A stretch of 28,583 nucleotides of DNA from Methanobacteriota archaeon (lineage in GTDB: Archaea > Thermoplasmatota > Poseidoniia > Poseidoniales > Poseidoniaceae): positions 1 through 28,583 of the forward strand of contig JABIGM010000045.1 in NCBI GenBank assembly GCA_018650165.1, in the 5' to 3' direction. Under the pieces are notes generated by a model. That model did no database searches. It saw nothing but the letters and a program-made list of their open reading frames with translations, and was not told where the DNA came from. Below are positions 2,356 through 21,524 of this stretch, piece by piece; position 1 is the first letter of the stretch; each line of letters begins with the position of its first letter. The position numbers were made by a program, and so were the translations under genes.

Positions 2356-2967
2356 ATGCAGATACGATTTCGTTTGTTGGCACTTGCGCTTACCTTACTG
2401 GTAATATTGCCAGGTTGTACCAGCCCAAAGGCGATGGAAGAAAGTGATGAAACAGTAAACGAACTTGATTTGCCAGAACGATTGAATCTTGTTGCAGATA
2501 CAGCAGGGAGAGATATCGATCGTGGTCCACAGATGAATATTATCGCAGATGCTAATGGTTCCAACACATTGTTACTGTGGGTTTCCACTGGGTGCTCTGG
2601 CTGTCATGACTGGACGGAAATGATCGCTGAGTCTATGCGTAATGGTAGTATTTCAAACGATACACGGATTGTAACAGTTCACCGTTACCCATCGTTTGAG
2701 AGCAGTGAGGAAGTTATCGAGGTGTATGCTACCGAAAATAGTACAACAAACTCCCTTTGGCCGGTAATGATGCCATTTGATGGTCAATCCGCCATTGACC
2801 TTGACAAGGGTGAAGAAACCGAATATGATTTCCAAACAGCGTTTGGTAATCCTGCAACACCATCTTTTACCTTGATTGATGGTGATGGAAACACACTTTG
2901 GAAAAATAAACAATATTGGGCGAATTACACAATGTTAACGGATGCATTAGAACTTCTAGACTCCTAA
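2356..2967 (+). CDS. Lipoprotein with thioredoxin-like (TlpA/redoxin) fold, CSGC motif
   Basis: Signal MQIRFRLLALALTLLVILPG-C (lipobox-like); WVSTGCSGC; ATPSFTLIDGDG cis-Pro loop. Start moved from 2338 to ATG 2356 on the basis of the signal peptide and -29 box. Confidence 0.75.
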   Translation: MQIRFRLLALALTLLVILPGCTSPKAMEESDETVNELDLPERLNLVADTAGRDIDRGPQMNIIADANGSNTLLLWVSTGCSGCHDWTEMIAESMRNGSISNDTRIVTVHRYPSFESSEEVIEVYATENSTTNSLWPVMMPFDGQSAIDLDKGEETEYDFQTAFGNPATPSFTLIDGDGNTLWKNKQYWANYTMLTDALELLDS

Positions 2968-17117: not shown

Positions 17118-17372
17118 TCAGTTACTGAGATGGTTTACTGATGTGACAGCGCGGCTTCCATCTATGATGCTTGAAAGAGCATTCATGCTGATCACCAATT
17201 GAACATATGTCTGTCCATCACTAGTTACGTATGTCGCACAGTCTTGGAAAGAACTAGTGTTTATCGACAACTTTACAGCACGGCCTGCGTTAGATTTCCT
17301 TACGAAACCTACAAGCATACTAGTTGCATTTTGTTCATTCTCGGGCTCGGTATTTTTTTGTGTTTTTGGCAT
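17118..17372 (-). CDS. Small hypothetical protein (84 aa) with an internal beta-beta-alpha pseudo-repeat
   Basis: Clean ORF with SD GGAGTGA upstream; resembles a short protein type I associate with Thermoplasmata, but no named family recognised. Confidence 0.8.
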   Translation of the reverse strand: MPKTQKNTEPENEQNATSMLVGFVRKSNAGRAVKLSINTSSFQDCATYVTSDGQTYVQLVISMNALSSIIDGSRAVTSVNHLSN

Positions 17373-17536: not shown

Positions 17537-18481
17537 ATGCGAGCACTAGTTACCGGAGGGGCTGGATTCATCGGTTCACATTTAGTCGACCGACTTGTTG
17601 CAAGAGGCGACGACGTTACAGTAGCGGATAATTTGTCATCTGGGGTTCTTGATTTCATCCAAGGCCACATCGACTCTGGAGCAGTTACATTCCACAATAT
17701 TGACCTCAAGGATTTAGACAGTGTAATACCTGTTATGGAAGGCGTCGATATGGTGTACCACCTTGCTGCAAATCCCGATATCAGACTCGGAACTAGGATT
17801 ACAGATACCGACTTGAAAGAAGGCACTATAGTAACTTACAATGTGCTTGAAGCCATGCGCTTATCCGGAGTTGGAAAGATAGCATTTGCATCCTCTTCAG
17901 TAGTGTATGGTGAAGATGCACCAATGCCAACACCTGAGAATCATGGCCCGTGCTTACCAATCTCTCTGTATGGTGCATCCAAACAAGCAGGTGAGGGGCT
18001 AATTGGCTCTTGGGTTGGAACCTTTGGTCTACAGGCATGGATTTTCCGTTTTGCAAATATTATTGGAGAACGTGGTACTCATGGAGTAATTTTTGATTTT
18101 ATTCACAAACTAAGAGCAGATCCAAACCGTCTGGAAGTACTTGGAAATGGCCTTCAAGAAAAGTCCTATATGGAAGTTGGCGATTGTGTCGATGCTATAT
18201 TGCTGGTAGTTAGCAAAACCGACGCACCAATCAATCTTTACAATCTTGGTTCCAGTGACACTTGTAGTGTCAGAAATATCGCAGCAATTGTAATCCGTGA
18301 AACCGGATGTACTGGTGCAAGTATAGATTACACGGGCGGAGACCGTGGTTGGGCCGGAGACATACCTAAGGCTATGCTTGCAATTAACCGGCTTCAGGAT
18401 TTAGGATTCAGGGTCAACTATGATAGTGAGGAAGCCGTGGCCCACACAACCAGAGTCCTCATCGAGGAGATAATGGGGTGA
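17537..18481 (+). CDS. NAD-dependent nucleotide-sugar epimerase/dehydratase (GalE-like extended SDR)
   Basis: TGGAGFIGSH, HLAANPD, ASSSVVYG, YGASK, FRFANIIG. Confidence 0.93.
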   Translation: MRALVTGGAGFIGSHLVDRLVARGDDVTVADNLSSGVLDFIQGHIDSGAVTFHNIDLKDLDSVIPVMEGVDMVYHLAANPDIRLGTRITDTDLKEGTIVTYNVLEAMRLSGVGKIAFASSSVVYGEDAPMPTPENHGPCLPISLYGASKQAGEGLIGSWVGTFGLQAWIFRFANIIGERGTHGVIFDFIHKLRADPNRLEVLGNGLQEKSYMEVGDCVDAILLVVSKTDAPINLYNLGSSDTCSVRNIAAIVIRETGCTGASIDYTGGDRGWAGDIPKAMLAINRLQDLGFRVNYDSEEAVAHTTRVLIEEIMG

Positions 18482-18485
18482 ACAA

Positions 18486-19127
18486 ATGCAGCGAAGAAAT
18501 ATTTCAAACGAAGCCGGAGCCCGAGCCGATGGTATGCTAATGGTCAGTGTACTATTTTTTGCAACACTCGCTTACATTGCACTAACTACGAGCCCAGTTT
18601 ACACAGGGGTCGGGGCCGGGGACAGAGCTCCTGAACTTCAAGGCGAAGTATGGGATGGAAACTCTTGGACCGCATTCAATTTGCATGATACATTTGACGA
18701 AGATTGGATTGAGGGCTCTGGTGAAGGGACTTGGTACATGATTGAATTTATGGATACCAATTGTAGTGCTTGTCAGAATGCTGCAACGAAAACTATTCCG
18801 GAACAACAAGACAAGTGGCTCGGCGATAATCCTCGCCCAACTCCAACCAATACAACTGTGGAATTCTTAGCGGTTTCAATTGCACTCCACCCTGAATCTT
18901 GGGCTTATGGCCAACAAGAAATAAAAGATTTCAAAACCGATTACAACCAAAATTTCCCTTTCATGGATGACCATGACAATTCAAACAGTGATGCTTGGGA
19001 GATTGGTGGAACACCGTCTTACTTCCTCATTGCACCAAATGGGCTGATTGAGTTCGCTTCACCTGAGGATAATTCGAAAACAGTATGGGATGTAATGGAA
19101 AATAAGATTCCTAGAGGTGATGCTTGA
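18486..19127 (+). CDS. Membrane-anchored TlpA/redoxin-like thioredoxin-fold protein, CSAC motif
   Basis: N-terminal TM, GDRAPEL, IEFMDTNCSAC, GGTPSYFLIAPNG. Confidence 0.85.
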   Translation: MQRRNISNEAGARADGMLMVSVLFFATLAYIALTTSPVYTGVGAGDRAPELQGEVWDGNSWTAFNLHDTFDEDWIEGSGEGTWYMIEFMDTNCSACQNAATKTIPEQQDKWLGDNPRPTPTNTTVEFLAVSIALHPESWAYGQQEIKDFKTDYNQNFPFMDDHDNSNSDAWEIGGTPSYFLIAPNGLIEFASPEDNSKTVWDVMENKIPRGDA

Positions 19128-19816
19128 TGGCACTAGATGCAAATACCCAACTGATGTTCCACTGGATTCCAATCGTTTTTGGTATGTTCCTTATGTCTCC
19201 ATTAGGTGAAGGCCTAGCCATGAACTTATCTTCTAAGTGGCCAAGTTTGTCTACCACTCGTGGCAGGACACTTGGTGGAATACTGTCTGTAGCCCTTGGA
19301 GGCTTTACAGTTTCAGCACACACACTTTGGATCCACAACAAAGCCAATGAAATGGGCGGTGCCAGTTTCTGTAGCGCAGATGGCATTTGGGATTGCTCAA
19401 GTGTAATTGGGAACTCGGACTGGAATACAATGCCATTCATTGGACTACCTTGGGGAATAGTTGGAATGCTAGCCTTTGCACTATTCATGTGGCTTATTAT
19501 CTCAGTTGCTAAGGAGCCCACAGCCAGTTGGGTCTTAATGCATCTAAAGGTGGGCACTAATCTTGGAATACTTGGAATTGGTATGATATTCTATCTGATA
19601 TATGCCGAATATGATATCGGCAAACTATGCCAGTATTGTACAACAGCACACGTTGCGCATGTAGTAAGCACATTCGGATTCTTCAGACTAGGCTCAATGT
19701 ATGGTAGTAGTGCTTGGGGAATCGGCGCATCAAGTGATGAAAACTCTTCTTCACGCGACCGCAAATCTAAGCGCGGCGGGTATGTCGCCCCAAAGTTGGC
19801 CTCTGAGGAGGAATGA
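19127..19816 (+). CDS. Vitamin K epoxide reductase (VKOR) family protein
   Basis: Loop cysteines FCSADGIWDCSSV, GLPWGIVG, active-site LCQYC; ATG 19127 (TGATG overlap, SD GAGGTGA). Confidence 0.9.
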   Translation: MALDANTQLMFHWIPIVFGMFLMSPLGEGLAMNLSSKWPSLSTTRGRTLGGILSVALGGFTVSAHTLWIHNKANEMGGASFCSADGIWDCSSVIGNSDWNTMPFIGLPWGIVGMLAFALFMWLIISVAKEPTASWVLMHLKVGTNLGILGIGMIFYLIYAEYDIGKLCQYCTTAHVAHVVSTFGFFRLGSMYGSSAWGIGASSDENSSSRDRKSKRGGYVAPKLASEEE

Positions 19817-20343
19817 ACGTGAAGGAAGGCAGCTGGTGGATGGTATTCACCGTAGTCTGCCTTGTATCACTCGTCGGACTGTTGGAGTATGAAGGACAAA
19901 TTGACATATTTGGTGAGTCCAAATCTAGTACAAGCCCTCTTGAGAATACTTCTGATGAAATGCATCCACTAAGCGAAAGTTGCTTGAACGGTCATGATGG
20001 AATGGCAATGCACTTCCACCCATACCTAACTATTGTTATTGACGGTGATGAATACGCAATAGCACAAAATACTGGAATTGACACTGAAACATGTCCTGAT
20101 GCAATGCATATGACTCACACACATGATGCATCAGGAAAATTACATGTTGAAAGCCACACTGTTGAAGAGGTGCCACTAGAGGTATTCTTTGATGTATGGG
20201 GCGTGCACTTCGATAACACAGGTATTCTTGATTACCGTGATGGAACAATTGAGATGACAGTGAATGGTCAAGAAAGCATGGATTATCAGAATTTAATTCT
20301 TGAAGATGGTCAGAATATTGTGATCACCTATACTTCCAATTGA
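19813..20343 (+). CDS. Membrane-anchored His-rich putative metal-binding protein
   Basis: N-terminal TM; MHFHP.L.I.IDG, NTGI, C..MHMTHTHD.SG.LHVES, FFDVWG; beta-grasp-like end VNG..LEDGQNIVITY; ATGA overlap with VKOR. Confidence 0.82.
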   Translation: MNVKEGSWWMVFTVVCLVSLVGLLEYEGQIDIFGESKSSTSPLENTSDEMHPLSESCLNGHDGMAMHFHPYLTIVIDGDEYAIAQNTGIDTETCPDAMHMTHTHDASGKLHVESHTVEEVPLEVFFDVWGVHFDNTGILDYRDGTIEMTVNGQESMDYQNLILEDGQNIVITYTSN

Positions 20344-20613
20344 TTACGGCGCATAGATTCCTTCAAAGTACAGGAAGTCTGTATTCGTTGTAATTGGCTC
20401 CATCCGATGCACTGTAACATCAACTCTTGAACTAGTTTGGTAGGCCTTACGCAATTCATGAAGTAATTGTTGATGAACAGAAGAAACATCGTCTGCACGG
20501 ATCATAGAGAGATGTCTATGACTTTCTTCATCAACCTGAACAGTATACTCTACCATCCAGGCTTTTGCACTTGTAAGGCCCCAGTCTTCAGAGGGATTGT
20601 GTGTTGGTTCCAT
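20344..20613 (-). CDS. Hypothetical protein (89 aa)
   Basis: Protein-like composition, TTGAAA at -29, stop abuts the convergent gene with no gap. Confidence 0.7.
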   Translation of the reverse strand: MEPTHNPSEDWGLTSAKAWMVEYTVQVDEESHRHLSMIRADDVSSVHQQLLHELRKAYQTSSRVDVTVHRMEPITTNTDFLYFEGIYAP

Positions 20614-20720: not shown

Positions 20721-21524
20721 TCACTCTTCTTCCGAATTAGGGGGCCTGTTTGAGGGGATAAATACTAGCAATCCACCTAAGAATATACAAATAGCCAAAA
20801 TCTGAAGCAAGTTATCATCTGCATCTTCTTGCAAAACTTGGTTACTAATTTCGACAACACCGTATGGTTCTCCTCCTTCAACCGGTTCATGGATTAGAAT
20901 AACTGACCACACTTCCGGAAGTTCTAGGTCACCGTATATTGTGATATTTGACCCAGAGTCAATCACCTTCATGCCGATTAGAACTCGATCTCGAGTATCC
21001 TCTCCAGGATTATCGGCAGATGCGGGAACCACTTTTCCATGTTCGAGAACCATGAGAGTAAGTTGTCCATTTGCAGGAGTTGGAATTGCGAATTCCCCAT
21101 CCACCAAACTTAGTGCGATATCTTCGGGGGCTTGCCGATTACTCTCTTGTGATAATATCTTTTTTTGGACATCTGCCCAGGAATCATAACCTTCGGCAGC
21201 TTTTACTCCATCAACGAAAAAGGTAGGTGTGCCGTAATTTGTCTCATCATTCTGCATCTGGTATTCGATTCTTGCGCGGCTTGCATTATTTTCAAAGGCA
21301 TCATCAATATGCAATCCCACAATGGCAGTTCGTGCCCCATGTGATCTGGCAACCATTGATAATTCAGGATCTATTTCGGCACATGAAGGACACCAAATCG
21401 CAGTTCGCTCCTCAACCAGTACTGTCCTTTTCAACCAATGCTGCTCAACACTCTCTTCTGCAATCGCAGTGGTTATGGACGAGAGGCACAAAGCCAGGAT
21501 GAGTACGGCCAGAATGTGCCTCAT
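20721..21524 (-). CDS. Secreted, C-terminally anchored thioredoxin-fold protein (Omp28/DUF1223-like), CPSC motif
   Basis: Signal peptide; VLVEERTAIWCPSC; YGTPTFFVDG; C-terminal TM; TTCATG at -31. Confidence 0.8.
   Translation of the reverse strand: MRHILAVLILALCLSSITTAIAEESVEQHWLKRTVLVEERTAIWCPSCAEIDPELSMVARSHGARTAIVGLHIDDAFENNASRARIEYQMQNDETNYGTPTFFVDGVKAAEGYDSWADVQKKILSQESNRQAPEDIALSLVDGEFAIPTPANGQLTLMVLEHGKVVPASADNPGEDTRDRVLIGMKVIDSGSNITIYGDLELPEVWSVILIHEPVEGGEPYGVVEISNQVLQEDADDNLLQILAICIFLGGLLVFIPSNRPPNSEEE

Follow-up and report, generated by a model that had tools for sequence, protein, structure and literature searches.

The pairing of VKOR with a fused or neighbouring partner of the thioredoxin (Trx) fold is established in cyanobacteria, plants and actinobacteria. 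Homologs of VKOR in archaea have also long been known (PMC4555120). A four-gene unit containing such a pair is found in JABIGM010000045.1, a contig of 28,583 nt from a Poseidoniaceae archaeon of Marine Group II (MGII). This contig (C49 of the genome) is the whole stretch analysed here and is referred to as the window; the host genome comprises 1.75 Mb in 66 contigs and is 80% complete. The unit encodes a nucleotide-sugar epimerase, a membrane-anchored Trx, VKOR and an anchored His-cluster protein. At its functional core stands the Trx-VKOR pair, which probably serves to generate disulfides outside the cytoplasm.

The described representatives of this arrangement are the Synechococcus VKOR-Trx fusion (3kp9, 4nv6) and the actinobacterial VKOR with a DsbA-like or MdbA partner. 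The MGII VKOR shares with them a four-helix core, a loop Cys pair and a CxxC in transmembrane helix 4 (TM4), as well as an outward-facing Trx-fold partner, adjacent or fused, and menaquinone as the likely acceptor. Unlike in the bacterial systems, the partner is a separate protein with its own N-terminal anchor and a ResA/TlpA rather than a DsbA-like scaffold, the VKOR has an extra N-terminal helix and the host belongs to the Thermoplasmatota. Similar to ResA, TlpA and CcmG (DsbE), the Trx combines this fold and an N-terminal anchor with a G..AP motif before the first strand, a CxxC and a G-T-P loop bearing a cis-proline. It differs from these proteins in scoring below their curated cut-offs, in the dipeptides and extra cysteines of its orthologs, in being encoded with VKOR and not with ccm, res or CcdA genes, and in being absent where CcmF stays. 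The proposed logic is that of the proteobacterial DsbA/DsbB system, in which a quinone-linked membrane protein bearing two pairs of cysteines regenerates a soluble or tethered oxidase, although there is no sequence relationship between the two.

Within the phylum, the nearest parallel is the DUF929-VKOR pair of other Thermoplasmatota (G180, G266), in which a CxxC (CPYC) protein likewise stands immediately before VKOR but belongs to a different family than the ResA-like Trx. These pairs show that the partner has been replaced within the phylum and that VKOR has a general habit of standing beside a Trx-fold protein. At the loci L152:311-2013, L170, L162:463-1431 and L154:430-2559 of other Thermoplasmatota, VKOR directly follows a DUF929 CPYC protein, lies beside a plastocyanin-like copper protein or, in one class-mate, carries an N-terminal extension of ~350 aa and is followed by a Redoxin-like CGHC protein.

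What is new in the MGII system is the lineage itself, the ResA/TlpA scaffold of the VKOR partner and the presence of a TlpA-like-CcdA fusion alongside this partner. The first-pass annotation of this DNA knew of no description of such a module in marine Euryarchaeota/Thermoplasmatota, and nothing was found in the literature on VKOR in MGII, Poseidoniales or Thermoplasmatota, nor on VKOR with TlpA. Members of MGII are among the most abundant archaea of the surface ocean. They are uncultured, and their biology relies on large exported proteases, adhesins and S-layer proteins. Disulfide formation in MGII matters both for the heterologous expression of exported proteins and for surface biology.

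The Trx-VKOR pair

The Trx begins with an N-terminal transmembrane (TM) helix, which is followed by the G..AP motif (GDRAPEL), the CSAC active site (C93, C96) and the cis-proline P177; C93, C96 and P177 are invariant in the ortholog alignment. The ResA/TlpA-type thioredoxin fold is distinguished by an N-terminal beta-hairpin and a central insert, and its presence in the Trx is supported at both the sequence and the structural level. A profile built from 29 orthologs finds ResA as its best match (1e-9). The AlphaFold2 model has a pLDDT of 92, and its top Foldseek matches are all ResA (E 4e-8, TMt 0.81). This bears out the earlier suggestion of a VKOR with a thioredoxin-fold partner built on a ResA/TlpA scaffold. 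The single sequence reaches 26.6 bits against the NCBIfam ResA model NF002854 (cut-off 170) and 23.3 bits against Pfam AhpC-TSA (cut-off 26), below the cut-off in both cases. The Trx belongs to the ResA fold class, yet it is no ResA ortholog. The DsbA (PF01323) and Thioredoxin_4 (PF13462) models gave no match to it.

Across the order, the identity of the Trx ranges from 21 to 58%, and the orthologs carry CPHC, CGHC, CGYC, CPYC and CPAC as variants of the CxxC. Dipeptides of this kind belong to the DsbA, PDI and DsbC types, whereas ResA and TlpA carry CxPC. An extra Cys pair is inserted in most of the orthologs. The dipeptides argue for a redox potential that would lie above that of the TlpA type.

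The VKOR gene matches PF07884 with 54.2 bits (2e-14; cut-off 27.5), and with 55.3 bits in a whole-genome scan in which it was the sole VKOR detected. Its four cysteines, C82 and C90 of the loop and C168 and C171 of the TM4 CQYC, are invariant in 28 orthologs. The ortholog profile matches the two Synechococcus VKOR structures, and the Cys pairs align. The additional N-terminal helix is hydrophobic, and the protein ends in a basic cytoplasmic tail. Co-folding of the Trx (residues 38-213) with VKOR (residues 40-205), using ortholog alignments, yielded ipSAE values of 0.28 and 0.27 (mark, 0.32), which speak neither for nor against binding. No fused Trx-VKOR was found; one search covered only proteins of at least 509 aa and so missed the relevant sizes. 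The search for longer VKOR proteins also returned no such fusion, and both searches are weak evidence.

A total of 49 related loci were examined, and in the 47 where the sequence reaches both genes the Trx stands directly before VKOR without exception. This adjacency survives in lineages with the epimerase on the other side, several genera of the sister family having the order Trx-VKOR-epimerase; the pair stays intact while its surroundings rearrange. In 121 Poseidoniales genomes, the by-genus tallies of the Trx, obtained with the ortholog profile, are the same as those of VKOR, which is present in 59/59 Poseidoniaceae and 42/59 sister-family genomes. Both genes are missing from the same 16 genomes, all of the sister family, and two whole genera lack the pair (g12, 0/4 sampled genomes; g16, 0/7). 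The four discordant cases are contig ends or fragments. Conservation of gene order, on which the first-pass annotation had staked its proposal, is thus upheld for the pair, which is gained and lost together, and the four-gene arrangement as a whole is conserved well above chance across the order.

A second exported Trx-like protein is encoded downstream on the opposite strand. It contains a signal peptide and an invariant WCxxCA (CPSC), its C-terminal domain is rich in beta structure and it ends in a TM anchor; no family model matched it, the best being Pfam Thioredoxin (E 0.009). Synteny of this gene extends over the whole order. The g12 genomes all carry it (4/4), and at 1e-8 it is missing from many VKOR-positive genomes. 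As the CPSC protein does not co-vary with VKOR, the ResA-like Trx is singled out as the dedicated VKOR partner. A third putative outward-facing CxxC protein (CSGC) of the window had no Pfam match at E <= 0.01.

Electron flow and alternative roles

The features of the two genes make it probable that the Trx and VKOR are the two components of a system that generates disulfides outside the cytoplasm and corresponds, in archaea, to DsbA/DsbB or to the actinobacterial DsbA-like/VKOR pair. The N-terminal helix would tether the ResA/TlpA-fold protein at the outer face of the membrane, and the disulfide of its CxxC would be passed to the cysteines of exported proteins. The loop cysteines of VKOR would then re-oxidise the Trx, with the electrons moving via the CQYC to menaquinone and from there into aerobic respiration. 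An outward topology is expected from the sequence; which way the electrons flow and which substrates are served is inferred.

The genome encodes what this route would need on the acceptor side. Two MqnA/MqnD-family (PF02621) genes and a UbiD-UbiA pair represent futalosine-type menaquinone genes, so the quinone pathway that was to be looked for in the genome is present, and a haem-copper oxidase gene, COX1, lies on contig C36. Menaquinone is a plausible electron acceptor for VKOR, with the oxidase as a plausible sink. Family models detected neither DsbA nor Thioredoxin_4 in this 80%-complete genome; DsbB itself was not searched for. On contig C5 (C5:43243-49590; L143), a CcmF-like gene (781 aa) stands beside the UbiD-UbiA pair and an apparent geranylgeranyl-reductase-like flavoprotein, a reading based on the N-terminal sequence of the latter alone. 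Genes for haem handling and for prenylquinones thus cluster on this contig.

A separate reducing route is likely to exist beside the pair. The Pfam DsbD_TM scan of the genome was negative, the divergent CcdA-like domain lying below the reach of the model. The domain is part of a 569-aa protein (C12:51992-53701; L144:993-2702), in which an anchored TlpA-like Trx with CANC and a long insert is joined to a CcdA-like membrane domain that keeps both conserved CcdA membrane cysteines. It was located via a 441-aa relative (L139:883-2208) consisting of a TlpA-like Trx and a DsbD_TM domain that passes the cut-off. Such a fusion passing the Pfam cut-off occurs in only two genomes, those of the genus-mates G108 and G010. 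Reduction of the operon Trx via CcdA or DsbD had been named as an outcome that would overturn the oxidative role. A CcdA-like domain is indeed encoded, but it is fused to a TlpA-like Trx of its own. A reducing-type scaffold which has seemingly been turned into an oxidising partner for VKOR, with a second, CcdA-fused copy in the genome, offers a natural test of how the CxxC dipeptide and the partner determine where the electrons go.

Several points weigh against the oxidative role. The ResA/TlpA scaffold is classically reducing, the CSAC of this genome's Trx is no textbook oxidase motif, and the CcdA-like domain could in principle reduce the operon Trx as well. The joint absence of Trx and VKOR is partly trivial, as a single deletion or assembly gap removes both of two adjacent genes. 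Genera without VKOR keep the His-cluster gene with its Cys pair intact, and disulfides may form in oxic seawater without the pair. An even number of cysteines was found in 55% of exported or anchored proteins versus 49% of cytoplasmic ones, a difference that is not significant (Fisher p = 0.24) in a test of 1,203 crude open reading frames (ORFs) of the genome sorted by a crude signal-peptide heuristic.

In one alternative, the Trx is a dedicated reductant or isomerase for a single pathway, either cytochrome c maturation or CuA/Sco assembly, and VKOR tunes or opposes it. Its fold and top sequence matches are those of ResA, and the genome contains CcmF, CcmC, a CcmA-like ATPase, two SCO1/SenC lipoproteins and COX1 in addition to the CcdA-like domain. 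However, CcmF-like genes occur in 118/121 genomes, including every genus without Trx-VKOR (g12, 4/4; g16, 7/7; g19, 1/1), so that the operon Trx is not a required CcmG/ResA and a role in cytochrome c maturation gains no support from co-occurrence with Ccm/Res genes. The CcdA-like domain already has its own fused Trx, while the operon Trx co-varies with an oxidant, VKOR, and its orthologs bear DsbA/PDI/DsbC-type dipeptides. It is also established thermodynamics that menaquinol, at ~-74 mV, cannot drive a TlpA-type reductant. Taken with these points, a dedicated reductant is unlikely. A role confined to quinone chemistry, with naphthoquinone or epoxide reduced at the outer face and protein thiols as the electron source, is more improbable than any other explanation considered here. 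Animal VKOR enzymes reduce quinones and epoxides, and viral VKOR modules for lipid modification are reported in a 2026 preprint. No gamma-carboxylase-like or epoxide-forming partner is seen in the locus, however, and a dedicated outward-facing Trx partner fits the prokaryotic disulfide-forming arrangement.

The remaining alternative treats the four genes as one module for the glycosylation of surface proteins, the formation of their disulfides and the loading of their metal sites. The four genes are tightly joined, the epimerase adjoins the pair in the same orientation in both gene orders, and members of the His-cluster family elsewhere sometimes lie beside DsbA-like, Cu-ATPase/HMA, DUF305, ZIP or MauE genes. 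Against this, an epimerase ortholog is retained in 14/16 genomes without Trx and VKOR, and the divergent and convergent genes flanking the operon are as syntenic as the operon genes. With a whole neighbourhood conserved in this manner, adjacency alone tells little about function. In the sister family 38-42 kb separate the His-cluster gene from VKOR, or the two are on different contigs; VKOR-less genera have the gene as well, and in some Poseidoniaceae it is located elsewhere or a different gene occupies its place. The wiring of disulfide formation to glycosylation and to metal-site assembly, as put forward by the first-pass annotation, is not supported by this comparison, and a single four-gene module is a rather remote prospect, less likely than the dedicated reductant. 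Disulfide generation by the Trx-VKOR pair, for which the comparative support is good, is the preferred explanation.

A larger evolutionary scenario may be built on this preferred role, although it is put forward only tentatively. A ResA/TlpA-scaffold protein would have been recruited in the Poseidoniia (MGII and class-mates similar to Marine Group III) as the main extracytoplasmic disulfide oxidase, replacing DsbA and being recycled by VKOR. The TlpA-like-CcdA fusion would carry out reduction, so that the same scaffold works in both directions within one cell. The His-cluster protein would then found a new and widespread family of surface Cu/Zn beta-grasp proteins in candidate phyla radiation (CPR) bacteria, DPANN and Thermoplasmatota, the folding of which depends on the oxidase.

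Two tandem SCO1/SenC lipoproteins with CxxxC are encoded at C34:14064-15241 (L145). Together with COX1, they suggest the assembly of a CuA-type oxidase.

The epimerase and the His-cluster protein

The unit opens with the gene of a cytoplasmic protein of the extended short-chain dehydrogenase/reductase (SDR) type, with 156.4 bits against PF01370 (1e-45; cut-off 20.9). It contains the GxxGxxG motif (GGAGFIGSH) and the SSS...YxxxK motif (YGASK). The protein is GalE-like and remains below the GalE equivalog cut-off (111.8 vs 262.3). Its identity across the order, 59-89%, is well above that of its neighbours. The epimerase is likely co-transcribed with Trx-VKOR; a functional dependence between them is not supported, and its distribution makes it appear a positional partner of the pair.

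The His-cluster protein has an N-terminal TM helix, the His clusters for which it is named and two extracytoplasmic cysteines (C57, C94). It matched no Pfam or NCBIfam model. There are 108 close homologs, and a profile search extends these to 2,730 representative clusters, with 1,293 scoring below 1e-10. The main sources are Patescibacteria, DPANN archaea, Thermoplasmata and Bathyarchaeia. The residues invariant in the wide family are H67, H69, H102, H104, H111, E113, G88 and F126, while the C57/C94 pair is usual but not universal. The domain is also found fused to YHYH, cupredoxin, cyclophilin, esterase, FG-GAP and Calx-beta domains, partners which fit an extracytoplasmic location. The family to which the fourth gene belongs is thus large, lacks a Pfam model, carries a site of five His plus one Glu and occurs commonly among CPR bacteria and DPANN archaea. 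The protein is probably a metal-binding surface protein.

The model of the His-cluster protein (pLDDT 76) has a beta-grasp fold. In a comparison with the DUF4430/transcobalamin beta-domain-like fold, the best structural match is the putative metal-binding protein RUMGNA_00854 (3u7z), with a middling Z of 6.7 over 81 residues and a root-mean-square deviation of 2.6. The two share 12% identity, the His/Glu cluster is not common to both and the match does not speak for a shared function. Foldseek found no match in the PDB at E <= 0.001, and the clusters retrieved from the atlas were all unnamed.

Within the order, 56/59 Poseidoniaceae and 47/59 sister-family genomes contain the His-cluster gene, and its linkage to VKOR is seen only in the Poseidoniaceae. 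The conserved Cys pair makes the protein a plausible client of the oxidase, and it is best taken as an accessory neighbour, not an obligatory part of the system. A general link between the His-cluster family and VKOR was considered and rejected, as no gene accompanied the family consistently in 63 loci of other phyla. The neighbours counted in these loci were formyltransferase (6), DUF305 (5), Cu-ATPase (3-4), MauE (3) and DsbA-like (2-3) genes; Cu-ATPase/HMA, DUF305, ZIP, MauE and DsbA-like genes are all minority neighbours.

In a Parcubacteria contig (L054:5001-6918), a His-cluster member is followed by a DsbA-like protein and then by a 191-aa polytopic membrane protein without a family match. 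Near this His-cluster gene lies one for a Cu-type P-type ATPase with HMBD domains. In the genus-mates G108 and G010 (L009:2201-3394 (-), L011), the place of the His-cluster gene is taken by a 397-aa ORF on the minus strand.

Gene layout and flanking genes

The features of the window are listed in the table below. The coupled arrangement of the four genes is confirmed. Read from the sequence, the epimerase and Trx genes are separated by a 4-nt gap (TGA, 'acaa', ATG). At the next junction, 'gcTTGATGg', the TGA of the Trx overlaps the ATG of VKOR, and in 'gaATGAac' the VKOR stop codon overlaps the ATG of the fourth gene. Purine-rich motifs resembling the Shine-Dalgarno (SD) sequence precede every internal start (GGGGTG, GAGGTGAT and GAGGAGGA). 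These junctions suggest translational coupling.

Table. Positions of the operon genes, an SD-like motif and other genes in the window
Feature	Position	Strand	Remarks
Extended-SDR nucleotide-sugar epimerase/dehydratase-family gene	17537..18481	+	314 aa, first gene of the unit
ResA/TlpA-fold Trx gene, membrane-anchored	18486..19127	+	213 aa
SD-like motif GAGGTGAT	19114..19121	+	within the 3' end of the Trx gene, 5 nt before the VKOR ATG
VKOR gene	19127..19816	+	229/230 aa; in-frame TTG at 19124 is an alternative start
His-cluster protein gene	19813..20343	+	176 aa
Exported CPSC Trx-like protein	20721..21524	-	
Putative outward-facing CSGC protein	2356..2967	+	
Small flanking ORF	17118..17372	-	84 aa
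Small flanking ORF	20344..20613	-	89 aa

The order in the Poseidoniaceae is a glycosyltransferase family 2 (GT2) gene (-), a small gene (-), the epimerase, Trx, VKOR and usually the His-cluster gene (+), a small gene (-), the CPSC Trx (-) and RrmJ (+). The two small ORFs that flank the operon had no family match, and their synteny is order-wide. Between the 89-aa ORF and the stop codon of the His-cluster gene there is no spacer.

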